Part shown: piece by piece, positions 4,345 to 64,000 of the stretch
Layout: each line of letters begins with the position of its first letter
How positions within the stretch are numbered: the stretch's first letter is position 1
Source of the DNA: an uncultured Verrucomicrobiae bacterium
GTDB lineage: Bacteria; Verrucomicrobiota; Verrucomicrobiia; Chthoniobacterales; UBA10450
Direction: 5' to 3'
Assembly (NCBI GenBank): GCA_963834385.1
Contig: CAWIBO010000005.1
Span: forward strand, 704,001 to 768,000
Length of the DNA stretch: 64,000 nucleotides
Position numbers and translations under genes: made by a program
The notes under the pieces: model-generated
Database searches by the model: none
What the model saw: the letters and a program-made list of their open reading frames with translations, nothing else
Told to the model about the DNA's origin: nothing

Positions 4345-4379
4345 GAATGACGAGGGACGAATGACGGATGACGAATGAC
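4345..4379. repeat. heptamer tandem repeat (GAATGAC)x5, degenerate
   Basis: gaatgac gagggac gaatgac ggatgac gaatgac immediately upstream of sucD. Confidence 0.85.
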
Positions 4380-40915: not shown

Positions 40916-44777
<3,862 letters not shown>

Positions 44778-44787
<10 letters not shown>

Positions 44788-44976: not shown

Positions 44977-45064
44977 TCACCGCTCACCGCTGACGGTTCA
45001 CGATTCACGATTCACGATTCACGGTTCACGATTCACGATTCACGGTTCACGGTTCACGATTCAC
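44977..45064. repeat. heptamer tandem repeat (TCACGRT) x12
   Basis: tcaccgc tcaccgc tgacggt tcacgat tcacgat tcacgat tcacggt... Confidence 0.95.
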
Positions 45065-48100: not shown

Positions 48101-48430
48101 ATGACCCTCCGTTCCCTCTCCCGCCTTGCTCTTGCCACCCTCCTCAGTGCGTCGCTTTCCCTCTCGGCGACCGCTCAGACCACCACCAGCGGCGACGACG
48201 CCCGCAAGGTGAAATCGCCCGAAAAGCCGACGCCGACGCCCAAGCCGTCGCCCACGCCCAAACCTTCTCCGACCCCAAAGCCGTCGCCTACCCCGAAACC
48301 GTCTCCGACTCCGACGCCTAATCCGACGCCAAAGCCGACCAAGCCGCCGAAGCCAACTCCGACGCCTAAGCCGTCGCCGACGCCGAAGCCAACGGCTACG
48401 CCTAAACCGACGGCTACGCCTCGGCCCTGA
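48101..48430 (+). CDS. secreted Pro/Thr/Lys hexapeptide-repeat protein
   Basis: Signal peptide followed by ~11 P[S/T]PTPK units with synonymous DNA variation. Confidence 0.8.
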
Positions 48431-49934: not shown

Positions 49935-50647
49935 ATGCTTTGTCGTCTTTTCATGCCCTTGCTCCTTGCGGCCACCTGCGTCACGGCCGGCGCGCAACAA
50001 CCCTCGCCCGGAACCGCCGCCGCTTCACCCGCGGCCACCCCCCTGGTCGATCTCGGCCCACCCCGTGCCGTGCCCGTCGCCCCGCCCCGCACCTCTTCCG
50101 CCACGGCCAACCCGAACGCCATCAGCGCCCCCAGCAGTTACCGTCTCGCGCCCAAGCGACCAGGTCGTCCATCGAGGTTTTCGGCGAGGACGATCTGCGC
50201 ACCAACGCCCGCCTTAATTCCGACGGCGCCCTCAGCCTGCCGCTCCTCGGCGCGGTCAAACTGGCCGGGCTGACCCTGAACGAGGCGGCATCACGCCTGA
50301 CCGAGCTTTACGGTCGCGATTATCTCGTCAGCCCGAAGGTCAACGTCACCCTCGTCGGATACGCCAAACGTCGCTTCACCATCCTTGGCCAGGTCAATCG
50401 CCCCGGCAGCTTCGAGATGCCCGACGGCAGCCCGAATGGCATTGATTTGCTCGAGGCCATCGCCATCGCCGGCGGTTACACCCGTATCGCCGCCCCTGAA
50501 CGGATCAGCGTCCGCCGCAAAAGCGAAGGCGGCGACAAAGTCCTGCGCGTCAACGCCAAGCGCCTCGCCAAAGGCCAGGGCGCCAACGCCGGCGGCTTCC
50601 GCGTCGAACCCGGCGACACCATCACCGTAGGCGAATCGATCTTTTAA
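49935..50647 (+). CDS. polysaccharide export protein (Wza/OPX-like); extra bases near 50154 and 50170
   Basis: YRLAP-SDQV-IEVFGEDDL...DGALSLPLLG (PES motif), SLBB GQVNRPG, AIAIAGG. Confidence 0.88.
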
Positions 50648-50828
50648 AAAGCTGAAAACTGAAAAGCTGAAAAGCTGACATAAGAATGAATCAGGAAAGC
50701 AGGAGGGAAAGAGGATGGAGAGTAGAGGATAGAGAATCGCCGCTCCCCGATAACCAATAACCAATAACCGATCACCGCGCCGTCCCGGCGCTCCCCCTTC
50801 TTCCTTCATAATTCATAATTCTTAATTC
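50648..50828. repeat. mosaic of short tandem repeats (AAAAGCTG, GGATAGA-like, TAACCAA, ATAATTC) plus the 16-mer hairpin
   Basis: Read directly in the wza-wzc intergenic region. Confidence 0.85.
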
Positions 50829-50836
50829 AATCAGCA

Positions 50837-53325
50837 ATGCCCCTCCCAGAAACACCGCGCCCCGCCAAAGCCGCACCCCTTACCTACGCCGAACCGCCGC
50901 GCGGCTTTGATTTCCGCCAGCTCTGGCATGCCGTCCTCGAGCGCGCCTGGATCGTCATCCTCTGCACCGCTCGCCGGTCTTTTTCTCGCGCTCGGACATC
51001 TCGCCCGTACCCCGAAGATTTATCAGGGCCACATCACGCTCGAAGTCGATGTCGCGGAGCAAGGCATCAATGCCGCCGATTCCGGCGACACCGCCGGGCG
51101 GGTCCGCTCCATGTTCCTCGCCAGCCAGGAAGCGCTCCGCACCATTGAACAGAATCTCACCAACCGTTCCATGCTCGCCCGGGTCATCCGCTCGGAAGGG
51201 CTCGCCTCGGACGAGGGCCGCGCCCTCCTTGGTCACACCGACAAAAAAGCGCCCACACCGCCGCCCGCCCCCGCAAAACCTGCCGCAGCCTCGGAGCGCG
51301 AGTCGGCCTTTACCCCCATCGAGAACGCGCTCGCCGGCGCTCTTGCCGGCATGGTCAAGCCGGTGGTCCGTCGCGGCACCCGCCTGATCGACGTTTATGT
51401 CACGCACACGGACCCCGCCATGGCCCAGCGCCTGGTCGAGGCGGTCGGCCGCGAATACATCCGCGGCTCGGTGGCCCGCCGCGCTTCCTCCACCCAGGAC
51501 ACCCTCCGTTATCTCCTCGAGGAAGAGGAACGGCTGAAAGCGAATTTGCAGAAGAGCGAGGCGGCCGTGGCCGAATACAAAGCGAAGACGCCTGACGCCC
51601 TCCAGCTCGGCGGCGGCGCCGCCTCCACCGGCAGCCAGCAGGGCGCCGGTTCGGGCTCGGGCGGCAGCCGGGGCGGGTTGGTCGAGGATCGGTTGCAGGA
51701 AATGAGCGGGAAGTTCACCGGGGCCAAAACGGAACGGCTCCGACTCGAGGGCGAGCTCGGGCCAGGTCGAACGCGCCGGGGAAGATGTGGACGCGCTCCT
51801 CGCCATTCCCAGCATCGCCAGCGCGCCTGTGGTCATGGACCGCCGCCGCGAGCTGGCGCAGGTGCAGGCGGCCGTGGCCACGCTTTCCCAGCGCTACAAG
51901 GAACAGCATCCCCGCATGATCGCGGCCAAGGCGGCCCTCGAGGAAGTTCAGGCCGCCCTGAAACGCGCCGTGCTCGAGCAGCCCGCCACGCTCCGCAACG
52001 CCCTCCAGCAGGCTCGCGCCACCGAGGAACAAATGGCCGCCGCCGTCACGGAACAGGAGAAAGCCGCCATCGCCCTCAACCGCGCCGCCATTGGCTACCA
52101 GGAACTGGCCCGGCAGGCCGAGACCGACCGCGCGCTCTACGAAAGCGTCCTGCGCCAGATCAAATCCACCGACCTCAGCAAAGGCGTAAAGAGCAACGCC
52201 GTCAGCGTCGTGCAAAATTCACCCTTGCCCGGCCGCCCGATCAGTCCGCAGCCCATGAAAACGATCATGCTCGGCCTTTTCGGCGGTCTCGCCGCCGGCC
52301 TCGGCGTCATCTACGCCCTGAACATGATCGATCGTTCCCTGAAAACGGTGGACGAAGCGGAATCGAACCTCGGCATGCCGGTGCTCGCCGCCGTTCCGGA
52401 AGTGAAAAATCGCGAAGCGTCCAGCCGTCCGAAGGAGGAGATGGAGGGCGAGATCGGGAGCGCCAGTTACCGGCTCCTTGCGGAAGCGCCGGAAGGCCCT
52501 GCGGCCGAGGCCTTCCGCAACCTGCGCGCCGCGCTTTCCTTGCTCGGGCCCGAGGCCGAACGTCGCGTTTTCCTCTTCACCAGCGCGCTCCCGGCGGAAG
52601 GCAAAAGTTTCACCAGCGCGAATTACGCCCTTTCCCTCGCGCAGCAGGGGCACAAGGTGCTCCTGATCGACGGCGATCTGCGCCGGCCGAGTCTCGACAA
52701 GATTTTTCGCCGGGTGCTTCCCCCTAACGCCCGGCCCACGGATGAGTTCGGGATCGTCGATTACCTGATCGGCAACACCACCCTGCAGGAGGCGATGCAT
52801 CCTGTCTCCGCCTCGCAGGTGGACGTGCTCGGGTCGCGCGAGAACCGGCAGGCCACCGTCACCGCCACGGGCGGCGAACTTTTCCTGCTCGCCGGCGGCC
52901 AGCGCGCCCCCAACCCGGCCGAGCTGCTCAGCGGCCACGTCTTTGCCGAGCTGGTCGCGGCCGCTTCCAAGCTTTTCGACCGCGTGGTCATCGACAGCGC
53001 GCCCGTCCTGGCGGTGAGCGATACCCTGCTCATGACCGCCTACGTCCAGACCGTCTGCATGGTGGTGCGCTCCCGCAAAACCCCGCGCAACGCCGTGCAG
53101 CGCGCCCTCGCCATGATCGCCGGCACCGGCATTCGCCCGGCCGGCGTGATCCTGAACCGGATGCCGCGCCAGCGCGGCGCCGGCTACTATTATTACTACG
53201 CGTCGCCCGGCTACGGCGCCGGCGAAGGCGCCTACAGCGGCGCGGGGTATGAGAGGAAGCCGGCTGGGCGCAGCCCGGCTGCCGGTGGTCAGAAGTCTGA
53301 AGTCGGAAATCGGAATTCAGGCTGA
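50837..53325 (+). CDS. polysaccharide co-polymerase / tyrosine autokinase (Wzc/GumC); +1 frameshifts ~50969 and ~51760
   Basis: DFRQLW, YKEQHP, AEAFRNLR, ALPAEGKS, DGDLRRP, VIDSAP, GYYYYY cluster. Confidence 0.92.
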
Positions 53326-53426
53326 TCGCACAAGCGCAGCCGGCTGCCCGCGAGCTGCGGAAGCTTTAGGTCTTAAGCTTTAAGTTTTAAGTGTGCGCGC
53401 GCGCGCTGCGCGGCATCTTCCCCCGC

Positions 53427-53450
53427 GGAGGGACGAGCTTCTGCTCGTCC
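53427..53450 (+). repeat. REP-like element: GGAG tag + 8-bp hairpin
   Basis: GGAG-GGACGAGC-TTCT-GCTCGTCC. Confidence 0.55.
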
Positions 53451-53465
53451 AAGCCTGCAGCAAAC

Positions 53466-53591
53466 TAACCAATAACCAATAACCAATAACCAATAACCAA
53501 TAACCAATAACCGCGCCGCCCCCGCCGCCCATCACCGATCACCGATCACCGATCACCGATCACCGATCACCGATCACTGATCACCGATCAC
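53466..53591. repeat. heptamer arrays (TAACCAA)x6 and (ATCACCG)x8
   Basis: 53466-53512 and 53531-53591. Confidence 0.95.
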
Positions 53592-53646
53592 TCGCGCCGT
53601 CCCGGCGCCCCCCGGCCTCCGACCTCCGGCACCCTCCGACCTCCGG

Positions 53647-53895
53647 CTAGCCTTCATTTTCCTGCACGCGAGATCCATTCCCGATCTGCTGATGCAGGCC
53701 GGTCATGGTGAGGAGCGGTAAAATATCGAAGCTCTCACCCTCGTCCTTTGCGTTGAACACAATGACGTAGCCGGCCTTATTCGGCGGAAGGGCAATATAA
53801 TCCCGGTGGGGAACGGAATACTGAAGCCCGTCTGCCATTTTCAGAACAAAAGGCAGATTACTCTCCACCGCTCTCTCAATCTGACTCCGCGTCAC
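53647..53895 (-). CDS. small hypothetical protein (PFxLxMADGxxYxVPH type)
   Basis: 82 aa, lower GC than neighbours, own promoter-like TTGAAA-N18-TATTGT 7 nt before the GTG. Confidence 0.75.
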   Translation of the reverse strand: MTRSQIERAVESNLPFVLKMADGLQYSVPHRDYIALPPNKAGYVIVFNAKDEGESFDILPLLTMTGLHQQIGNGSRVQENEG

Positions 53896-53975
53896 AACGC
53901 AAACAATATCAACGGCCGCCCGGTCCTTTCAACTCCATTCACCGCCTGGCGGGAACAGTTATCGAAGGTGAGATG

Positions 53976-54197
53976 TCAGTGATCAGCGGTCAGCGCTCGC
54001 CCTTCCGATCTCCGACTCCATCTTCCGGCTGCTTCGCAGCGCCTTTCAGCTTGTCAGCTTTTCAGCATTTTCCCCTCTCCGCTCCCGGCCTCCGACTTCC
54101 GACTTCCTCCCCCTGATAACCGATAACTGACAACTGATCACCGCGCCGTCCCGGCGCCCTGCCTCTTAACTCTTAATTCTTAATTCTTAATTCTTAA
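53976..54197. repeat. mosaic of heptamer/octamer arrays and GC hairpins
   Basis: CAGTGAT/CAGCGGT, TCCGATC, CAGCTTTT, CCGACTT, ATAACYG and CTTAATT arrays; 16-mer hairpin at 54142. Confidence 0.85.
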
Positions 54198-56128
54198 TTT
54201 CCCCCGTTCCCCAACAGATCCCCAAATACACCGCCACATAAAGCTGGATCGAAAAGATCTGTAACGGAAAATCCACCAGCGCGTGCAGCGCCACCCCGCC
54301 CAGCGCCAGGACCACCAGCGGAACCAGCAACCGATGCCGCGGCAACCAGGACGGCGGGGAAGAATTTTCGATTCTCGATTTTCGATTCTCGATTGCTCCC
54401 TTCAGCTTCTCGCGTTCTCCTTCCTCCCATTAACCGATAACCGATAACCGATAACCGGCTGCCCGCAGCCTACCGACAACTGATCACCGATTACCGGCCG
54501 CTCCGCGGCCCTTGTCAGCTTTTCAGCGTTTTCTCCTTCCTCCCCATTAACCGATAACCGATCACCGATAACCGGCTGCCCCGCAGCCTCCACCGATAAC
54601 CGATCACCGATTACCGGCCGCTCCGCGGCCCCTGTCAGCTTTTCAGCGTTTTCTTCTTCTTCTTCCCCACTAACCGATAACCGATCACCGATAACCGGCT
54701 GCCCCGCAGCCTCCACCGATAACCGATCACCGATAACCGGCTGCCTCCGCAGCCATCTCCCATCTCCTATCTTCCCGGCCGCTTCGGCCGCTCGCAGCAG
54801 CCGCCCCCCCAAAGAACAGCGCCGCCCAGAGCGCGCCCCCCAGCCACCCCCATTCCAGCAGCGTTTGCAGATAATCCTGGTGCAGATACCGCCACCCTTC
54901 CCGCAGCTCCGTCCCTTCCCCGCGCGCCACGTGCGGAAAGATGGTGCGGAACGTGCCCGGACCGTACCCCAGCAGCCCGGCCTCCGGCACCCCGCGCAGC
55001 GCCGTCCGCGCCGCCGGCCAGCGCAGGTCCTGAGCACACTTTCCCCGGTGTTTTGCCAGCGCTCGATCGGACGATCCAAACGGCTCGCCTGCCCAATGGC
55101 GTAGATGGCCACGACCAGCAGCAGCACCGTGGCCGCGCCGGTGATCTTCTCCGCGCCCCGCATCAAGCCCGCGCACCCGCGGCAAAGCTGCGACGATCAG
55201 CACCAGCATCAGGAGCAACCCGATCGCCTGCGCGGCCCGCGACGTGTTCGAAACCACCGCGCCGGCCGTGACCAGCGCCGCCGCGATCCAGCCCCCGCGC
55301 ACCAGCGGACTCGCGCGATGATGCAACGCCCGGTAAGCCAGACCAAAGACCACCGGCAGGACGAGGTTCAGGTAGGCGCCCGCGTTGGCGTGATAAAAGT
55401 AGGTCGCAAAGAACTGCGGCGGACCGTAACGCGATTCACCCCAGAAAATCATCTCGGCGCCCGTGCCTTTCTGGAGCAACCCCAGCAGCGCGATGGACGT
55501 GCCGGTCAGGGCCACGCCCGTGAGCAGACGCAGAAACCACTGCGGACGCCGGCAAAGATCAGCCACAAAGAGGAGCACGCCCAGGAGAAGCGTGGCTCGC
55601 GTCATCCAGGCGAGACTTACCGCCTTGTCCGCCGACCCCGGCCAGCCCGGCCAGGCCTGGTCAATCGGCACCCAGAGATCAAACTCCGTGTCATAGATCC
55701 CCTTCCCATTCCAGGCCATCGCCCATCCGAGGAGCAGCAAAGCCCCCACGATCCCCCAAAGGACCCACCGCCCCGTTCCCCTTTTTCCTTTTTCCTTTTT
55801 CCTTTTGCCTTCCGCCCCCCTCCTCTTCTCCGACCTCCGACCTCCGACCACCGATAACCGGCCGCTTCGCGGCCTTCTTCCCAATAACCATTAACCAATA
55901 ACCAATAACCGGCGGCTGCCCCGCAGCCGCCCCCACCCACAGCAACAGCACCGCTGCAAGCATCCATTCGAGGATCCGGCCGCTCTCCAGCGTCGTGGTG
56001 CCGTAAGCCCACGGCGCCCAGACCAGCGCCACCACCAAACCCCACCCGGCCACACCGCCCAGCAGCGTAGAAAACTTCCAGCCCCGCGGCAGCGGCGGCA
56101 GCCATTGAATACGCGGTCGACGCGACAT
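54187..56128 (-). CDS. O-antigen ligase/polymerase (Wzy_C)-like membrane protein with repeat-derived insertions and several frameshifts
   Basis: [47 protein letters not shown]; final [23 protein letters not shown], stop at 54187-54189. Confidence 0.8.
54415..54755. repeat. ~120-bp composite unit repeated ~2.7 times inside the ligase gene
   Basis: GATCACCGATTACCGGCCGCTCCGCGGCCC at 54482 and 54602 (period 120); units are heptamer triplets alternating with hairpins. Confidence 0.9.
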
Positions 56129-56183
56129 GCGGCCAACACTAAGCCAGGAAGAACCCCGGAAGGAATCGGAAGTTGGTTACTTG

Positions 56184-56612
56184 TTATTTGTTATCAGTTA
56201 TTGGTTCTCGCGCGAAATTCGTTCCCGTTGCCCCGGCGCGTTTAAGATAAGCCATGTAGCCATTCAAGAGACGGACCGCCGTGCTGACGAGATCGCGACC
56301 CTCTTCGAGCATCTCACTCGAAATCATTTTCTCGTCCTGCGCGGCGATCAGATGATCGAGGACTTCCCAGCATGAGCCGCGCGCGTTGCTGCAGAATTTC
56401 GCGTTATCGAGATGATGAAATCGTCCGTAACCCTCCGCGATATTTGCCGTCGTCGAGCGTGCCGCGCGTAAGATTTGATCCCCCAGACGGTATCGCTCCT
56501 CTTTCGGGAGCGCCGGGATTACGGAGCCGGAAACGAATTTCCGTAACTCACGACACGCCTGCCAGCACTCAAGATCTTCAAAGCTCCGAATGGGGGCACG
56601 TTCACCACTCAC
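56184..56612 (-). CDS. four helix bundle protein (23S rRNA IVP / S23-like family)
   Basis: SFEDLECWQ, LPKEERYRLGDQILRAARSTTANIAEGYGR, ARGSCWE, LLNGY. Confidence 0.93.
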   Translation of the reverse strand: MSGERAPIRSFEDLECWQACRELRKFVSGSVIPALPKEERYRLGDQILRAARSTTANIAEGYGRFHHLDNAKFCSNARGSCWEVLDHLIAAQDEKMISSEMLEEGRDLVSTAVRLLNGYMAYLKRAGATGTNFAREPITDNK

Positions 56613-56645
56613 CGGCTAACGTTATCAGACCGGTCAATCCTCCCG

Positions 56646-56724
56646 ACCAATAACCCATAACGAGTAACCAATAACGATCTTCCCTCACCGCCTCCCAATA
56701 ACCAATAACCAATAACCAGTTACC
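56646..56724. repeat. (CCAATAA)-type heptamer arrays upstream of the four-helix-bundle gene
   Basis: accaataacccataacgagtaaccaataac and ccaataaccaataaccaataaccagttacc; inverted relative to 56172-56206. Confidence 0.9.
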
Positions 56725-56825
56725 ATTTCCCCTTCTCATCGAGCAGCCTTTATTGTAATTTCAAGAACCGCTTTTCGCCGCGCCTTGCCGCCTCCAGGCA
56801 GCGGGCGGCGGTCGCCCCGCACTCC

Positions 56826-58347
56826 ATGCTCGCCACCGATCATCTCGACACCCAGCCATCCGCGCCGATGGCCGTCGAGCCGATCCCGCCTCCTGCGCCG
56901 GTCCGGCCGGCCCCGGCCCCGACCCAAAGCCGCTGGCGCCGGTTCGCCCGCACCGCTGTCCGGCAGGACTGGTCCGCGCCGGCCCTTTGCCTCCTGATCG
57001 ACGTCGGCCTTTGGAGCGTGATCTACGGCACGACCGCCTACGTCCGCGGCGATTCCTTTTATTCCACGCCGCTCCAGTTTGCGGTCATCAACCTGATCCC
57101 GCTCGCGGTTCTCTTTGCCGCCCTTTTCATCATTGGCGGATACGATCGCCGGACCCCGATGCGCAGCCTGGTCTATACCAGCGAACACATCCTGGCCATG
57201 ATCACGGCGGCCGTCGTCTCCTCCCTCCTGATTTACGCCGCCGCCGCTTACGACCAGCAGATGCGTCCCAGCCGCGGCGCCCTGCTTGATCAGCTTCATC
57301 CTCTTTTCTCCGCTCTCCCTCATCTACCGCCGGATCATCTGGCGGTATCTCGCGGTCTCGACCGCCAACCGCGCGTTTCTGGTCATCGGCGCGGGCGAAC
57401 TGGCTGCTTCGTTTTATCGGGCCTACAAAACCTCGCCCAACCGCCAGCGACTCGAGTTCGTCGCGCTCGAACGCGACCGGGTGGGCGAACCGATCTTTGG
57501 GCCCGGGTCACCGATCATCGAGGGCGACCTCGCGACCAAGCTGGAACGGCTCGACTCCCAGTATAGCGGCGTGATTCTGGCGGAAGCGGTCGATCGCCTC
57601 AGCCCGAAGCTGCTGGATCGTTTGGTCCGGACCCAGTTTCATTCCACCCGGGTTTACACCATGGAATCGTTTTACGAGGCGCACTGGCGACACGTCCCGG
57701 TGCAGGCGCTTGACCCGTTCTGGCCGTTGCAGACCGGGTTCCAGCTCGCCAGCATCTCGCCTTATCATTACGTGAAACGCCTCTTCGACATCCTCCTCAC
57801 CGGCCTATTGCTGGTCGTGTGTGCCCCGGTCATGGCCTTGATCGCCGTTGCCATCTGGCTTGAGACCGGCCGGCCGATCATCTTTCGTCAGACCCGGCTG
57901 GGGCGCGAGGAGCTGCCCTTCAGCGCCCTGAAGTTCCGGACCATGTTTTTGCGGACGGGGGAAGAAGCCGGGGAAGACATTTACACCCGGCAAAACGATC
58001 CGCGGATCACCCGGGTGGGCCGGCTCCTGCGCAAGCTGCGTCTGGACGAACTGCCGCAGCTTTGGAACGTGTTCCGGGGCGAGATGAGCCTGATCGGTCC
58101 CCGGGCCGAGTGGGACCGTTGCGCCGAGCGTTACGCCGCCGTGATCCCGTTCTATCATTTCCGGCACCTGGTAAAGCCGGGGATCACCGGCTGGGCCCAG
58201 GTCAATTATCCGTATGGCGAAAGCGACGCCGACGCGATCGAGAAACTAAAGTTCGACCTCTACTACATCCGCCACTACTCCCTGAAGCTCGATCTCATGA
58301 TCGTCCTGAAAACGATTCACACCGTCCTTTTCGGAAAAGGAAGGTGA
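56826..58347 (+). CDS. priming polyprenyl-phosphate sugar transferase; +1 frameshift ~57287
   Basis: N-terminal TMs; [41 protein letters not shown]. Confidence 0.93.
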
Positions 58348-58581
58348 GGTTTAAGAGTTAAGTTTTAGGTTTTAAGGGTTCAGGGTTCAGGACCACGGCA
58401 GTTCACCAAAGCTTAAGCCATGCGGCTGCCAATTTCAGCATTTCAGTTGTCAGCGTTTCAGCATTTTCTTCTTACTTCCGACTGCTCCGCAGTCCGTCTT
58501 CCCAATAACCAATAACCAATAACCAGTTCACCGCGCCGTCCCGGCGCCCCCCGACCTCCGATCTCCGATCTCCGACTTCCG
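58348..58581. repeat. mosaic of TTTTAAG/GTTCAGG, TTTCAGC, TAACCAA and CCGATCT arrays with hairpins
   Basis: Read directly; 16-mer hairpin at 58532. Confidence 0.85.
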
Positions 58582-58588
58582 AATGCCC

Positions 58589-58765
58589 CCGCAGTTTCTC
58601 TTCACAGAGCCGAAGCGAAAGCAGCAGCTCCGCGATGACGCGTTGCGCGACATAAAACCAGCCGCGCCAGCCATCGAGAATGAGGCCGCGCCCGAACAAG
58701 AGGTAAAGAAACATCACCGGCGGCGCCAAAACGATTTTCAACCGCAACCGATCCTGCAGGCTCAG
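58589..58765 (-). pseudogene. orphan 3' fragment of a family-2 glycosyltransferase (paralog of 62198-62986)
   Basis: DRLR...LAPPVMFLYLLF..GL.LDGW.GWFYV.QRVIAEL.LSLRLCE.KLR: 45/55 aa identical to 62231-62395. Confidence 0.88.
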
Positions 58766-58805
58766 CGGTTCCGCATTCTCCTTTCCGCCTTCTTCTCGCT
58801 CCCGG

Positions 58806-58886
58806 CTCCGCGCCCCGTGCTCCGCGCCCCGCGCCCCGTGCTCCGTGCTCCGTGCTCCGTGCTCCGTGCTCCGTGCTCCCTGCTCC
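58806..58886. repeat. heptamer array (CTCCGTG) x11
   Basis: ctccgcg ccccgtg ctccgcg ccccgcg ccccgtg (ctccgtg)x5 ctccctg. Confidence 0.95.
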
Positions 58887-58914
58887 AAACGACATCACTT
58901 CGTGAGCAGATCAT
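58885..58914 (-). pseudogene. probable PemK/MazF-type toxin N-terminal stub
   Basis: MICSRSDVVW overlapping the antitoxin stop, then cut off by the heptamer array. Confidence 0.45.
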
Positions 58915-59104
58915 TGAAGATATCATCGCCCGGATTATCCCAGACGTTCGCAAGCGATTCTTCTGATACCCTCAGCCATGCCGCACGCGAAGTATCTGCG
59001 TCCGCGGGTTCAACCGTCGACAACACTAGAGTGTCATCCGGGAGCGGAAGCGGTTCTTTCAAAATGAGTTTCCCTTCCAGATATTGCGCTTCCACCGTCG
59101 TCAC
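58895..59104 (-). CDS. putative antitoxin (AF2212/DUF104-like N-terminus, WDNPxDD C-terminus)
   Basis: MTTVEAQYLEGKLILKEPLPLPDDTLVL...WLRVSEESLANVWDNPGDDIFNDLL. Confidence 0.65.
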   Translation of the reverse strand: MTTVEAQYLEGKLILKEPLPLPDDTLVLSTVEPADADTSRAAWLRVSEESLANVWDNPGDDIFNDLLTK

Positions 59105-60962
59105 GAGACAAACAATAATGCTGGCGGACCATAGCCAGCAAGTTTTTCCCTGACGGACCCAGCCGTGCCCCCAGCGAATGCCGGGCAATAAAGTTGTCGA
59201 GGGCAAAAAGGCACCACGATCGATACCAGCTTTTTAGCGGCACCGGGCTTCGCTCACCAATCTTCTTGAAAATATCGTCCCACTCTCCTGTCACCCACTC
59301 CTGGAACGGAAAAGTGAACCCCTGCTTGGGACGATTCCGAACCCATTCGGGAATCTCTGGCACAGCATCAAGCACAAGCTTTTTTCCGCGGGCCAGCCTG
59401 ACTGCCGCCGGGATGGATTCGATCGCCTCGACCAGACGGCTGTCCACGAACGGCACCCGCAGCTCCAGGCTCCAGGCCATGCTCATAACGTCGCTGTCGC
59501 GCAGGAGCTGGTTTCGAATATACCGCCCAATCTCCACATAACTGACCTCATCCTCGATCGTTGGCTGGCTGGGGACATGAAACCCTGCCTGGATGGGACG
59601 GCCCAGTTCTTCACAGCCGTAATACGGGAGCAGCGCGCTAACCTCGGCCGGAGTGAAAATGCCGCGCATGGCCCAGTAGGCCGACGCCGTCAGGGGGGCG
59701 TCGCGCAGGAAATGCCCGAGGCGCGCCGTTCGGGGGGAGACGTGGAGGGCTTGCAACAATCGGCCGGCTCCCATCTTCAGAGGCCAGATCGGGGTCAGGG
59801 CGCGGCTGGCGCGGACCAGCTTTGGCACGGTCTGGAATGATTGATAGCCGCCAAACAGCTCGTCTCCGCCGAGGCCGGAAAGCACTACTTTCAGCCCCTG
59901 CTCGTGAGCAAGTTTAGCAACGCAGAAAGTATTAAATCCGTCGATGCTCGGCTGATCCGAGACCGCCAGGAATTTAGCCAGGAGCGATTTTGCCGTAGCC
60001 GAATCCAGCTCCCAGTCGACATGGTCAGTCCCGAAATGGCGCGCGGTGCGGGCCGCCACCTTTCCCTCATTGATCGATTGGTCGGCAAAAGATATGCAAA
60101 ATGTCTTTAACTGCGTGCTCTGCCGGGCGGAACTGAGCGCAACCATCGCAGTGGAGTCGATTCCTCCGCTCAAGAAAATCCCGACCGGCACATCGCTCAC
60201 CAAATGGCGCGCGACCGATTCTTCCAGCGCCTGCCGAACCCGTGGCGGACTCTCTTCGGCCGGAATGCCCCCATCGGAAAACCGGATGTCCCAGTATTTG
60301 CGCAGCGTCGTCTGACCACGACGCCAGACCAGGTAATGGCCCGGCGAAAGCGCTCGGACGCCTTCAACCAGCGTCAGAGGCTCCTGCACCGCTCCGAAAA
60401 GCAGGTAGCCGGAAACGGCTTCGGGCGATAAACTGAGCGGCACCAGGCCCGAACGAATAAGCGCGTTAACTTCCGAAGCGAAAATCAGGGCGCCATTCCG
60501 GTCAGTGTAATAGAGGGGCTTCACCCCGAGAGGGTCGCGCGCCAGGAAACAGGATTGCTCCGCTGCGTCCCAGATCGCGACCGCGAACATCCCCGCAAGT
60601 TCCCGGACAAACTCCGGGCCGTCGCGCTGGAACATCCGCAGAACTACCTCCGTGTCGGAATGCGACTCGAACTGCTCGCCTTTCGCTTCCAGTTCGCCGC
60701 GCAGCGCCTTGAAATTGTATATCTCCCCATTGAAAACGATCCGGTAACGCCCGTCGCGCGAGCTCATCGGTTGATGACCGGCGTGCGATAAATCGAGAAT
60801 CGCCAGACGGGTATTCACCAGCCCGGCCAGTCCATCCTCCGACTGGAACACGCCGGAATCATCCGGCCCCCGATGACGGAGGTCCCCTTCCATTTGCGCG
60901 AGGGCCCGCGCCACTCGCCGCGGCTCCGAGGTTGTCCCAATCGCTCCGGCGATCCCGCACAT
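59034..60962 (-). CDS. asnB: asparagine synthase-like glutamine amidotransferase (EPS modification)
   Basis: MCGIAG, HRGPD, FNGEIYN, LSGGIDS, SGLGGDE, ELRVPF; C-terminal ~45 aa overlap the antitoxin locus and are doubtful. Confidence 0.93.
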   Translation of the reverse strand: MCGIAGAIGTTSEPRRVARALAQMEGDLRHRGPDDSGVFQSEDGLAGLVNTRLAILDLSHAGHQPMSSRDGRYRIVFNGEIYNFKALRGELEAKGEQFESHSDTEVVLRMFQRDGPEFVRELAGMFAVAIWDAAEQSCFLARDPLGVKPLYYTDRNGALIFASEVNALIRSGLVPLSLSPEAVSGYLLFGAVQEPLTLVEGVRALSPGHYLVWRRGQTTLRKYWDIRFSDGGIPAEESPPRVRQALEESVARHLVSDVPVGIFLSGGIDSTAMVALSSARQSTQLKTFCISFADQSINEGKVAARTARHFGTDHVDWELDSATAKSLLAKFLAVSDQPSIDGFNTFCVAKLAHEQGLKVVLSGLGGDELFGGYQSFQTVPKLVRASRALTPIWPLKMGAGRLLQALHVSPRTARLGHFLRDAPLTASAYWAMRGIFTPAEVSALLPYYGCEELGRPIQAGFHVPSQPTIEDEVSYVEIGRYIRNQLLRDSDVMSMAWSLELRVPFVDSRLVEAIESIPAAVRLARGKKLVLDAVPEIPEWVRNRPKQGFTFPFQEWVTGEWDDIFKKIGERSPVPLKSWYRSWCLFALDNFIARHSLGARLGPSGKNLLAMVRQHYCLSRDDGGSAISGRETHFERTASAPG

Positions 60963-60965
60963 GAC

Positions 60966-62114
60966 CTAGGTGCCGCCTCCTTTCCGGAGCTGAGCCACCC
61001 TTTGGATCAACTGCCGCAGATTCTCCCTGAATCGATCGTAATCATACGCCTCGCATACTCGGCGGCGCAGTTCGGTGGGATCCTGGAGGACCGCCAGCGG
61101 ATGGGCCCCTCGCAGAATGGCGATAACCTGCTGTCCCAGTTCGTCGACGCTGTCGGGATCGATCAGCGCGCCGATCGCGCCCCCCAGGAGAGCGTCGACC
61201 GATCCATCCTTGTTCCCGGCCAGGACCGGTTTCCCGCAGGCCAGCGCTTCCAGAAAAACGATTCCGAACCCTTCCCCTTTGCTCGGCATGGCGAAGAGAT
61301 CGCAAAGATTATAATGATCGCAAAGTTCGTGCTCCGGAATGTAGCCGGCGAGCGTGACCTGTTTGCTCACGCCTGCCTCGTCGATCAGCCTCTCCACCCG
61401 CCCCCGATCGGGTCCCTGCCCGCCAAGAATGTAGCGGATATCGGGGAAAGCATCGCGAATCGACGGCAGGGCCTGCAGCACCTGATCGTAACCCTTGTAA
61501 CGCTCGGCGCTGGCCAGACGGGCGATGGTCAGGATCACAGGCTGTTCCGGGGAAAGCCCGTAGCGTTTAAGAAGAAAGCGCGGCTTGGGACCCGGCACGA
61601 AATGACGGGAATCAAAGGTGTTTGGCAGAAGATTGATGGAATCTTCTATACGTCCGATCACCTCGGTCATCCGCCCCCGTGTGAACTCGCTCACGGCCGC
61701 CAGGCCGGGTGCTTCCTGCAAGGCACGGCGGACAGACTGGCGCGGGATGTCCCAGACTTCGATGCCGTGTCCGATGGCAAGGTAAGGAATTCCAAACCAC
61801 GTCCATAACGTTCGCGCCACCGGCGCGAAATTCACATGCGTCGTCAGAATCACGGTGGGCCGCAGCCGGACACCAGCCATTATAAGGCGGCCGGCGAAAG
61901 CCGCGGTTCGCAGAGACGCCGGCCACCAGCCTAGGGGTGTAAAACTGGTGGCCACATCATCATTCGGCGCTGGAAAACAGGTGTCGTTCTTCGAAAACAC
62001 ATGGACTTCAGCGTCCGGAAAAGCTTCGGCCAGCGCACGGATGGCAAAGCGGGAGAACGTCTGAATCCCACCCGTAGCCGAGGCATATTCCGGAACCCAG
62101 ACATGAATTCTCAC
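60966..62114 (-). CDS. glycosyltransferase family 4
   Basis: GGIQ, HGIEVW, YKGYD, EGFGIVFLEALACGKP. Confidence 0.93.
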   Translation of the reverse strand: MRIHVWVPEYASATGGIQTFSRFAIRALAEAFPDAEVHVFSKNDTCFPAPNDDVATSFTPLGWWPASLRTAAFAGRLIMAGVRLRPTVILTTHVNFAPVARTLWTWFGIPYLAIGHGIEVWDIPRQSVRRALQEAPGLAAVSEFTRGRMTEVIGRIEDSINLLPNTFDSRHFVPGPKPRFLLKRYGLSPEQPVILTIARLASAERYKGYDQVLQALPSIRDAFPDIRYILGGQGPDRGRVERLIDEAGVSKQVTLAGYIPEHELCDHYNLCDLFAMPSKGEGFGIVFLEALACGKPVLAGNKDGSVDALLGGAIGALIDPDSVDELGQQVIAILRGAHPLAVLQDPTELRRRVCEAYDYDRFRENLRQLIQRVAQLRKGGGT

Positions 62115-62169
62115 CCGCTTGTCTTAAGGGCACCTCGCGATCGCTGAAAGCTCCTTTTTCCTGCCGCCC

Positions 62170-62206
62170 CTTTTCAGCTTCTCAGGTTGTCAGCTTTTCA
62201 GCGTTT
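62170..62206. repeat. TTTCAGC-type octamer array at the 3' end of the GT2 gene
   Basis: ttttcagctt ctcaggttgt cagcttttca gcgttt. Confidence 0.7.
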
Positions 62207-62986
62207 TGTGTCGCCGTCCTCCGAACTGCTTCGCAGTTTCGCTTCACAAAGCCGAAGAGAGAGGAAAAGTTCTGCGATCACGCGTTGCACCACATAAAAC
62301 CACCCGGACCAGCCGTCTAAAGCCAACCCTTTGACGAAAAGCAGGTAAAGGAACATCACCGGCGGCGCCAGGAAGACTTTCTTTCTTAACCGATCGGCAA
62401 AGTTAAGGGCGGCATCTGAGGTCTGCAGTAAATGGGCCACCTCGATCTGGGCATACCGATCCTGAGCTGCGAGCCAGCGCGTTAAAGGTTTTCGATCGTC
62501 GTGGACAATTTCTCCGGTCAAGCGCGCAACTTCGCCGGTAATAACGAGCCTTTGGGTGTGCCCATCATCAACGTAATGGGCGCCCTCACGTCGAAAAAGG
62601 ACAATGTGAGCGGGATAGACTGACGTTCGGAGATTTCTGCTAAAGATCCTAAACTGAAAGCAAGCAGAGTAACCATTCGCCGTTGCAGGTATCAGATCCT
62701 GAATTTCCCTCGCCAACGCCGCTGTAACCTCGTAATCCGCATCGAGCGCGAGGACCCAACTAGTTGAAATCTGTCCTAGCCCAAAATTCCACTGCGCCGC
62801 GTGCGTGTCAAAATCACGTGAAATCGCGATGACGCCGGGATGACACTCTCTTGCTCTCTGTATCGTGTCGTCGGTACTGAAACTATCGATGATGACAATT
62901 TTTTCCAGCCAATGCAGAGCCCTTACCGTGCGTTCAATATTCTCGTTCTCATTATAAGTCAGAATGAGCGCGGTTATTGATAGCAT
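62198..62986 (-). CDS. glycosyltransferase family 2
   Basis: ILTYNENENI, DSFSTD, LDAD, HDDRKP. Confidence 0.93.
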   Translation of the reverse strand: MLSITALILTYNENENIERTVRALHWLEKIVIIDSFSTDDTIQRARECHPGVIAISRDFDTHAAQWNFGLGQISTSWVLALDADYEVTAALAREIQDLIPATANGYSACFQFRIFSRNLRTSVYPAHIVLFRREGAHYVDDGHTQRLVITGEVARLTGEIVHDDRKPLTRWLAAQDRYAQIEVAHLLQTSDAALNFADRLRKKVFLAPPVMFLYLLFVKGLALDGWSGWFYVVQRVIAELFLSLRLCEAKLRSSSEDGDTKR

Positions 62987-62991
62987 ATCAA

Positions 62992-64000
62992 TTAATTTTG
63001 TTGCAGCGATCGATACAGATCGACGAGCGCGTCGGCCACTGCGCGTCTCGAGTAACACCTTTCTCCCATCTGTCGGCCTCGTTCAGACATCTCAGCGGCC
63101 GCCTTGGGATTTGTCAGTATCCAGTCAATCGCATCAGCAATGGACTCCGGGTTTCGTTCGACGACCATTCCGCCATCCACCGCACGGACCTCACTGCTGA
63201 TTGCTACTTCGGGAGAAATGATCACGGGAATGCCGGCTGAGTAGTGCCTCCGCCGGCGCAATGCCGAAATTCTCGGAGGCAGAAGGCAAGACAAACACTT
63301 TTGCAGCTGCGAAGGCGGCGGCCTTTTCCTCCGGCCGTAAATGACCTGTCCACACGATGTGCCCCTCCAGAAACTGTTTCGTAACGAGTCTTTTCAGCTC
63401 GGTGACAAACGATTCCTCACCATCGCCGGCAATGACAAGCAATAAGGCAGGATGCTGATTGAGCAGTTTACCCAACGCTTCCAGCAAAAGCTCAATCCCT
63501 TTCTTCCGATCGATTCGGGAGAGGAACAGGATTACATCCCGATGCGTGACACCAGGAAAGCAATTACTGAAGGCCGCTGGCCCGGCTCTTTTAGGCACAG
63601 CCACCGGCAGAGGAATGATAGCTGTGCGCTTCACTGCGACCTCACGCCCAACATCAAGTGCTTCAGCCGCCTCCGCCTCCGACGTAAAATGCAGGGCGGC
63701 AGCTCCGCGAATCATTGGAAGCTCGACAACCTTTAGAGAAAGCTTTTTTGACCAAGCCCGCCGATTTGCCAAGCCCCATCGATTCAGGACACCAAGCGGC
63801 CGAATAATATAGGGAACGCCCGCTCGCCATGCAGCAGCAGCAGCAGCCGTGCTCAGAAATGAAAACACGGCATGAATGTGAATTACATCATACTCTCGCG
63901 CATGCGTCCGGAGCCAAAACGCCGCGCCGATCGAAATCTTGTATCGCAAGACGTTGCGCGGGAAGTACACGAAGTTGACGCCATCTTCCCGGATATGCTG
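62992..64000 (-). CDS. glycosyltransferase family 4, 5' end outside window; +1 frameshift ~63242
   Basis: HIHAVFS, SRIDRKKG, SENFGIAPAEAL-SAGIPV. Confidence 0.9.

Follow-up and report, generated by a model that had tools for sequence, protein, structure and literature searches.

The spacers of an exopolysaccharide (EPS) locus in the genome of an uncultured soil bacterium of the Verrucomicrobiae (assembly GCA_963834385.1; G000; 2.9 Mb, 89.6% complete) are filled with short tandem arrays of 7- and 8-bp units, and these arrays are probably the gene-less arms of several lineages of small cassettes carrying a PF05635 four-helix-bundle (4HB) gene, joined by arms of GxxExxY genes and by pieces of repetitive extragenic palindromic (REP) sequences of the type associated with REP-associated tyrosine transposases (RAYT). 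The locus lies in a stretch of 64,000 nucleotides (contig CAWIBO010000005.1, hereafter C5, positions 704,001 to 768,000), referred to as the window, whose own numbering is used wherever no contig is named. The verdict reached here is that the arrays are selfish or domesticated cassette arms with a build-up resembling that of bacterial interspersed mosaic elements (BIMEs). Six observations carry it: the coupling between repeat unit and protein lineage, the existence of filled and empty versions of one site, the copying of arrays as blocks, their polarity relative to genes, recurrent inserts in the same protein loops and one exact junction. The names of homologues indicate the Chthoniobacterales (Verrucomicrobiota). 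The comparison genomes are relatives from the same family, none of them congeneric; the unpublished genomes G007, G002 and G422 contribute nothing beyond single rows, and the claims are independent of them.

An earlier, sequence-only reading of this DNA had described the gaps of the locus as mosaics of 7- and 8-bp arrays, a description that is borne out: all nine units that it named are in place, and arrays are present in 8/8 spacers between 50648 and 62197, where they account for 653 of the 1517 spacer bases (43%). Mapping of the whole genome, which that reading had suggested, confirms that the arrays are real, with 107 period-7 and 17 period-8 arrays found by our own detector against 0 and 0 in the block-shuffled genome, while Tandem Repeats Finder reports 226 arrays in 68 clusters. 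The EPS locus is one among several such dense clusters.

Four-helix-bundle cassettes and their arms

The cassette of the EPS locus (56176..56677, minus strand) consists of a G-rich arm (56677-56649), the 4HB gene (56612-56184; 55% GC) and a C-rich arm (56206-56176) that overlaps the end of the gene. The encoded protein matches PF05635 with 90.7 bits (cut-off 33.8), TIGR02436 with 84.5 bits (cut-off 24) and the structure PDB 2gsc with an E value of 1.3e-8. According to the predicted fold, the two arms pair into a long stem that encloses the gene (z -2.14), and the whole is placed between protein-coding genes, not inside a 23S rRNA gene. This arrangement is common to the genome, since 8/8 PF05635 loci of G000 lie between co-directional genes and carry repeat arms of their own unit, two of them weak, and three GxxExxY loci carry 8- or 9-mer arms. 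Five of the nine units listed for the EPS locus (TAACCAA, ATCACCG, CTTAATT, TTTTAAG and CAGCTTTT) can be read as 4HB arms in G000.

The same holds for a family-wide sample of 145 4HB loci with 142 distinct proteins, of which 125 have an upstream array and 124 a downstream one, the units on the two sides being complementary in 96/142 copies. The unit follows the protein: nearest neighbours in the protein tree have an arm unit in common in 112/139 cases, compared with 11.6 under label shuffling. The window 4HB protein has 11 close homologues (61-79% identical), every one of which bears GGTTAT(T/C) arms, and they lie behind at least four different upstream genes (wcaJ in 7 cases, asparagine synthase in 1, wzc in 1, and elsewhere in 2). 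The free arrays can be related to the same units, for 105 of the 202 free 7-mer arrays of G000 are identical to an arm unit of the family, against 15.4 for letter-shuffled units, in a test that left out the 4HB genes of G000 itself; counted by unit type, the match is 18/54 against 3.9.

Arms may also change within a lineage. In one clade (L052-L073), 4HB genes are found mostly at one site, whose flanks we take to be sdhA and sdhB, and both arms switch jointly between an 8-mer and a 7-mer while staying complementary; related copies at other sites have 9-mer arms. Another clade (L156-L165, L170, L181, L183, L188 and neighbours) has hexamer arms of reversed polarity, C-rich before and G-rich after the gene.

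A site at which the cassette comes and goes

In the locus, the gene order is outer-membrane barrel, wza, wzc, small gene, O-antigen-ligase-like gene (OAL), 4HB gene and wcaJ, followed by the 3' remnant of a family-2 glycosyltransferase (GT2), an antitoxin-like gene, asparagine synthase, a family-4 glycosyltransferase (GT4), GT2 and GT4. Among 33 relatives' loci, wcaJ and OAL are both in view in 27, and in 8 of these 27 the gap between them holds a 4HB gene (one of the eight, L046, was chosen for having it). Five of the filled sites contain the lineage of the window 4HB gene and three contain others, two of those with different arm units, which makes at least three lineages with different units at one site. 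In the remaining 19/27, the gap is at most 254 bp long and in many cases retains a lone arm of varying unit. The 4HB cassette therefore comes and goes at this site, and the wider locus differs between relatives as well: alignment, again a check proposed by the sequence-only reading, shows very variable cargo besides the 4HB gene present in 8/27.

Since wcaJ and OAL lie on the same strand, in the order wcaJ->OAL, in 27/27 relatives, the wcaJ-type priming sugar transferase gene (56826..58347, plus strand) is inverted in G000. It is now flanked by a 29-bp direct repeat, whose first copy (56693-56721, plus strand) is a CCAATAA array and probably an arm of the former GT2-wcaJ spacer hairpin; the second copy lies at 58500-58528. 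When wcaJ is turned back in silico, the copies form a perfect stem (z -4.5, against +1.2 now), and it follows that the inversion split a former arm pair. Recombination between these 29-bp arms as the cause of the inversion was considered and ruled out, because the copies are now in direct orientation. The inversion ends within array-rich spacers, and crossover may have taken place where 7 bp at the wcaJ stop match, in inverted orientation, 7 bp lying between two arrays, a match with a chance level of 15%.

Mosaics, hairpins and REP pieces

The unit types of the genome, more than 50 in number, are arranged in mosaics, and these are copied locally as blocks that recur within about 60 kb. The block at 50688-50814 shares 85% identity over 136 bp with a spacer 38 kb away (G000:C5:792347-792480), and the one at 54077-54189 shares 78% over 121 bp with G000:C5:799864-799983. 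The first of these belongs to a composite (50688..50829) of a GxxExxY-flank-type 8-mer, a GAGGATA run, a CCAATAA/CCGATAA array, a triloop hairpin (50777-50791) and a TTCATAA/CTTAATT array; just before it, an 8-mer array (AAAAGCTG; 50647..50678, plus strand) adjoins the wza stop and has the unit of the arms of the PF05635 gene at G000:C5:789487. A GTCAGAA array (53288..53320, plus strand) lies within the last codons of wzc, and the mosaic between wzc and the small gene (53361..53645) contains a TTTTAAG array, a REP-like palindrome (53425-53450), TAACCAA x6.7, ATCACCG x8.7, a hairpin (53594-53608) and a CCGACCT array. On the other side of the small gene, the mosaic at 53975..54199 includes a short arm ahead of that gene and hairpins at 54028-54040 and 54143-54157 as well as CAGCTTTT, CCGACTT, GATAACC and CTTAATT arrays. 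The one behind wcaJ (58350..58582) is made up of TTTTAAG, AGGGTTC and ATTTCAGC arrays, hairpins at 58480-58494 and 58533-58547, the second 29-bp copy and a CCGACCT array. Finally, at 62170..62238 (minus strand), a CAGCTTTT-type array follows the stop of the intact GT2 gene, the last codons of which contain a triloop hairpin (62224-62238).

The hairpins had been thought to punctuate the arrays. Within the locus, 13 of 23 triloop hairpins (stem of at least 5) present GGA, GAA or GGG loops on the minus strand, on which the arrays are G-rich, and lie beside arrays or near them. GNA loops may be extra stable in DNA; the energy model gave no difference between the strands of these triloops. Genome-wide, a triloop hairpin (stem of at least 6) stands at the 5' side of 20/257 arrays, compared with 3.4 (maximum 11) in a shifted control, and the association turns out to be local, for GNA hairpins (stem of at least 5) accompany 10/54 arrays in C5 beyond 750 kb, 1/197 elsewhere and 1/85 in the loci of relatives. 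GNA mini-hairpins as a general insertion signal are ruled out by this confinement. Of 18 copies of a GCGCCG hairpin, nine have a four-base loop, seven of these keeping the tag-side tail, while 8/9 triloop copies fall in C5:754-808 kb, fused to arrays; judging by sequence, this hairpin is a cut-down tip of a GTAG-tagged REP. Because the pairing of hairpin and array is local and rare in relatives, it is best described as a lineage-specific BIME-like composite. The palindrome at 53425-53450 resembles those flanking a RAYT-like gene at G000:C2:395381, which scores below the cut-off and has no heptamer arrays on its flanks. The heptamer arrays themselves are not 20-40 bp palindromes with GTAG/CGTC tags. 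The commonest unit of the genome, GTGAAT(C/G), forms 45 arrays, often adjoining a GTAG-tagged REP.

Repeat DNA inside genes

Arrays were also held to be translated inside genes, a claim that agrees with the in-frame inserts which relatives have at the same loops, and to which the OAL gene as assembled here lends no support. This gene (54187..56128, minus strand), with a weak Wzy_C match below the cut-off, exceeds an insert-free homologue by two inserts: insert 1 (+124 nt; 55780..55931, minus strand) comprises a hairpin, a GGTTATT array, another hairpin and CCGACCT and CCTTTTT arrays, and insert 2 (+411 nt; 54360..54790, minus strand) about three tandem copies of a 123-bp array-hairpin-array-hairpin unit plus a TYTCGAT array. 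Insert 1 shifts the frame and insert 2 contains stops in the frame of the gene, which is broken at both inserts and twice more in ordinary coding sequence. The length of the 123-bp unit, a multiple of three with one open frame, is too weak as proof of translation, given these shifts outside the inserts. In 33 relatives, one of them the reference, 15 inserts of at least 30 nt occur at the same two loops, 14/15 being in frame, and repeat-type peptides can be read in about five of the loop inserts. The GT2 loop before the last helices likewise has inserts in 5/29 family loci, four in frame and one frame-breaking, all of different sequence; among 119 database homologues of GT2, 6/6 internal inserts lie at residues 186-192 and the remaining ones near the C-terminus. 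A loop of wcaJ is filled in the same manner in three relatives. Polysaccharide enzymes are remodelled by repeat DNA over and over, at loops that stay the same.

Frameshifts are also present in wza, wzc, wcaJ and one GT4, and 193 of 2324 high-scoring open reading frames (ORFs) of the genome lack a start codon in our own gene calls, which suggests uncorrected sequencing errors in the assembly. Elsewhere in the window, a frameshift, probably another of the numerous errors of the assembly, divides a gene that we take to be metH-like (42477-44787), and the protein encoded at 48101-48430 looks secreted and has a tail of Pro-Thr-Lys repeats (11 copies with a period of 18 bp).

Polarity, RNA folds and the possibility of RNA-level control

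Intergenic arrays make up 225 of 251 merged arrays by our own gene calls, and they are oriented relative to the genes around them. The G-rich strand is the coding strand behind 59/73 stop codons (p 1e-7, in statistics that ignore kinship, related copies not being independent), and the C-rich strand is the coding strand before 20/28 start codons. Arrays are found in 30/157 convergent, 79/814 co-directional and 18/384 divergent gaps. For TAACTGA heptamers, a matching polarity relative to genes was described by MacGregor (PMC4679880). Within the window, further arrays are ACGATTC x10.3 and GAATGAC x5 (44993-45064 and 4345-4379).

Such strong transcriptional polarity, with its preference for convergent over divergent gaps, is what would be expected if the arrays were kept mainly for control of the stability or translation of each operon segment at the RNA level, with paired arms cut by RNase III or bound by a four-helix pentamer. 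Some spacers do fold more stably than shuffled sequences (z -3.2 and -4.6), and so does the spacer rebuilt as it was before the wcaJ inversion. In addition, an intervening sequence (IVS) of Coxiella containing heptamers is described as cut by RNase III within its stem (PMC4990558), and TAACTGA repeats precede start codons in Beggiatoaceae (PMC4679880). However, units and their very presence vary freely among relatives at the same site, several spacers of one polarity are no more stably folded than shuffled sequences (z -0.9 to -1.3), and the polarity is explicable by purifying selection alone. As the main reason for the arrays, RNA-level control is therefore considered unlikely; it is nevertheless compatible with their being cassette arms and may add to it.

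Breakpoints, cargo and the possibility of cassette shuffling

The proposal with which this analysis began went further, regarding the repeats as functional elements of recombination, of RNA structure or of both, at which small genes of many kinds would enter and leave the polysaccharide operon without the help of an integrase. What survives of it is that the arrays are non-random, that a PF05635 gene enters and leaves (8/27), and that one deletion junction and one inversion fall in array-rich DNA.

The junction is the most precise piece of evidence. Only the first nine codons remain of a toxin gene (58888..58914, minus strand), which its sequence pattern leads us to take as PemK/MazF-like, next to an antitoxin-like gene (58895..59104, minus strand; 53% GC) whose homologues (14/14 fetched) are followed by a toxin reading frame with a start resembling this stub. 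After codon 9, the gene is cut 0-2 nt from the edge of a GGAGCAC x11.7 array (58805..58887, minus strand), which forms the deletion junction. The array occupies the position of the GT2 loop that has inserts in relatives and is also the left edge of the GT2 3' remnant (58580..58780, minus strand; about 67 codons whose product shares 76% amino acid identity with the end of the intact GT2 encoded at 62198-63058). Thus, where two breakpoints had been placed exactly at arrays, the toxin cut stands and the glycosyltransferase end lies at that very junction, which makes one junction and not two. On the simplest reading, a deletion or replacement joined the start of the toxin gene to the resident loop array of an older GT2, of which it left the 3' end behind; the intact upstream GT2 (51% GC) is probably an import. 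In this bacterial family, polysaccharide loci repeatedly show duplicated gene ends. G021 (L020:13400-14140) shares the layout of the window, a toxin-antitoxin-like pair lying between a GT2 and a second, nearly identical copy of the GT2 3' end, and in G292 (L274:8052-8327), the final 26 codons of wcaJ occur twice (89% identical) with 118 bp of spacer between them; both junctions are without an array. Moreover, breakpoints in spacers will often touch arrays by chance, because arrays already amount to 43% of spacer DNA.

The cargo gives a similar picture. Small genes of lower GC content were said to be bracketed by inverted pairs of arrays, and this is true of the PF05635 gene, which is the only truly bracketed cassette in the locus. 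The small conserved gene (53647..53895, minus strand; 53% GC) is also flanked by arrays at either end, though their polarity is the opposite, ordinary one, and it has a promoter-like site of its own (53932-53903); the antitoxin gene has no upstream array. Homologues of the small gene, present in 19/150 family genomes, have mixed flanks and inconsistent bracketing, by which a bracketed cassette is ruled out in favour of a passenger. The small gene encodes a protein conserved in Verrucomicrobiota, without a family in Pfam, NCBIfam or Atlas; its homologues often have a sigma-70-like promoter that ends at the start codon (leaderless) and occupy variable loci. Genome-wide, small low-GC genes are 1.9-fold enriched beside arrays (35/227 against 127/1432, p 0.004), as counted with our own gene calls, some of which are false ORFs, and the genes flanked by arrays are mostly ordinary ones.

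Profile scans of 18 ORFs in the locus, and of another 43 in the 44 kb beyond it, detected no integrase or transposase, as had been stated for the locus, although the genome does encode an integron integrase, the sole match to TIGR02249 over the cut-off, about 670 kb away on C5, and the RAYT-like gene. This integron integrase (G000:C5:81295-91177; L281) lies just downstream of a presumably transposase-like ORF and directly precedes some 24 heptamer arrays, densely clustered around small and ordinary genes. Y1 transposase domains, flanked by palindromes, are found within 700-codon open frames at G000:C2:733659-733850 and C3:125156-125338.

Taken together, the exact toxin cut, the inversion between array-rich spacers with its 7-bp match at both ends, the filled and empty wcaJ-OAL sites, the enrichment of small genes and the variable cargo of relatives could be attributed to a general shuffling system. 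Against it, the 7-bp match has a chance level of 15%, the 29-bp arm pair was split and not used, the duplicated ends of G021 and G292 were joined elsewhere than in arrays, the other small genes are without cassette-type arms and the enrichment is modest. Such a system is thus quite improbable, and a dedicated shuffling machine should no longer be claimed unless strains or reads provide evidence for it; one soil sequencing run contained only 5% of the words sought.

Even less can be said for neutral microsatellites grown by local polymerase slippage, an idea for 7-nt repeats that PMC4692102 and PMC4679880 credit to Mrazek et al. 2007: some arrays are long and almost perfect, with 7 to 24 copies, which fits slippage, and heptamer excess is widespread among bacteria, yet the units match cassette arms far above chance, the arrays are strand-polarised and copied together with their neighbours as blocks, and 149/204 have 4-5 degenerate copies (the detection threshold trimming the lower end), by which this very improbable origin is already largely refuted.

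How cassette arms might spread

If the arrays are cassette arms, their copying would depend in some way on the cassette, much as that of REPs depends on RAYT, and new copies would come to rest directly after stop codons or in protein loops that tolerate them. Arms once settled may attract further arms, those of different type fusing into nested mosaics, and slippage could lengthen some of the arrays. In the transcript, a G-rich arm would come first and pair with a later C-rich one into a stem of the RNase III type, a pairing that would keep C-rich, Rho-loading sequence from exposure behind the stop codon. Both RNase III and Rho are encoded in G000; Rho-like genes of full length number two (G000:C2:180018 and C2:1256100). 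Deletions and inversions would end in arrays through short-homology joining, as a by-product, and the polysaccharide locus would collect arms because it is often exchanged and tolerant.

Several points weigh against this interpretation. No enzyme that copies arms was identified, and a search for a retro-element partner such as a diversity-generating retroelement (DGR) found none, with no reverse transcriptase match (PF00078) in the 89.6% complete genome. The relatives are not close, and no single event was caught in the act. Exact matches in the family sample are lacking for 36/54 unit types, and the p values are overstated because kin are not independent. Furthermore, the joint tree of unit and protein may come from inheritance as one piece alone, and related 4HB genes at one orthologous site carry either 8-mer or 7-mer arms.

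A more specific proposal, which is speculative and rather unlikely to be correct, is that 4HB proteins recognise their arms by sequence: the pentamer of each lineage binds about 4-5 of its own heptamer units, one per subunit, and hands the nucleic acid to a host or trans-acting enzyme in the manner of Avd in retrohoming. The idea of one subunit per unit draws on the kinship of the 4HB protein with the Xanthomonas pentamer 2GSC (PMC4990558) and with the DGR protein Avd (PMC10053308). If this were true, the edge of an arm would act as the end of a mobile element, giving rise to local hops, nested mosaics, in-frame inserts in loops and deletions beside arms, of which the toxin cut would be one. 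The 4HB family would then be a non-catalytic counterpart of RAYT/REP, active above all in polysaccharide loci, and the source of the heptamer excess of bacteria. Both the heptamer excess of bacteria and the function of PF05635 are long-standing questions, for which the analysis offers a handle in the table of protein lineages against units, in one site filled by three lineages and empty elsewhere, and in a genome whose free arrays mostly match.

Comparison with known systems

Several of the parts have been described before. In the S23p element of Coxiella, a PF05635 gene lies in an IVS of the 23S rRNA, where tandem heptamers precede the start codon and their copy number differs among strains (PMC4990558). 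The cassettes described here resemble it in having a PF05635 gene within a stem formed by inverted ends, and differ in being placed in mRNA spacers, in their many lineages and units, and in the gene-less arms found throughout the genome. In REP/BIME systems with RAYT, one type of gene corresponds to one type of repeat, and gene-less repeats spread, cluster in mosaics and lie mostly 3' of coding regions, sometimes in frame (PMC6006769, PMC3733652). These features are shared; the main repeats here, however, are tandem 7- and 8-mers instead of GTAG-tagged palindromes, and whereas RAYT is an HUH transposase, the linked protein is a four-helix bundle without known cutting activity.

Bacterial heptamer repeats include the short tandemly repeated repetitive (STRR) sequences, GGGAATC of Xanthomonas and TAACTGA of Beggiatoaceae (PMC4692102, PMC4679880), the last of which also occurs in the arm here. 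They too form intergenic 7-mer arrays and inverted pairs, run forward before start codons and are occasionally translated (PMC4692102, PMC4679880). Unlike the more than 50 unit types in mosaics observed here, those reports concern one unit per genome, and the passages considered make no link to PF05635. The Rickettsia palindromic elements, repeat DNA lying in frame in tolerant protein loops (summarised in PMC3733652), are comparable to the loop inserts, which differ in being tandem arrays whose unit changes at the same loops across genera. Integron cassettes are similar in that small genes enter and leave between hairpin-like sites; in contrast, the EPS locus has no integrase, and one gene family alone behaves as a cassette. 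In the open-access literature, supplements being outside the search, no link between PF05635 lineages and dispersed heptamer arrays was found beyond the Coxiella IVS.

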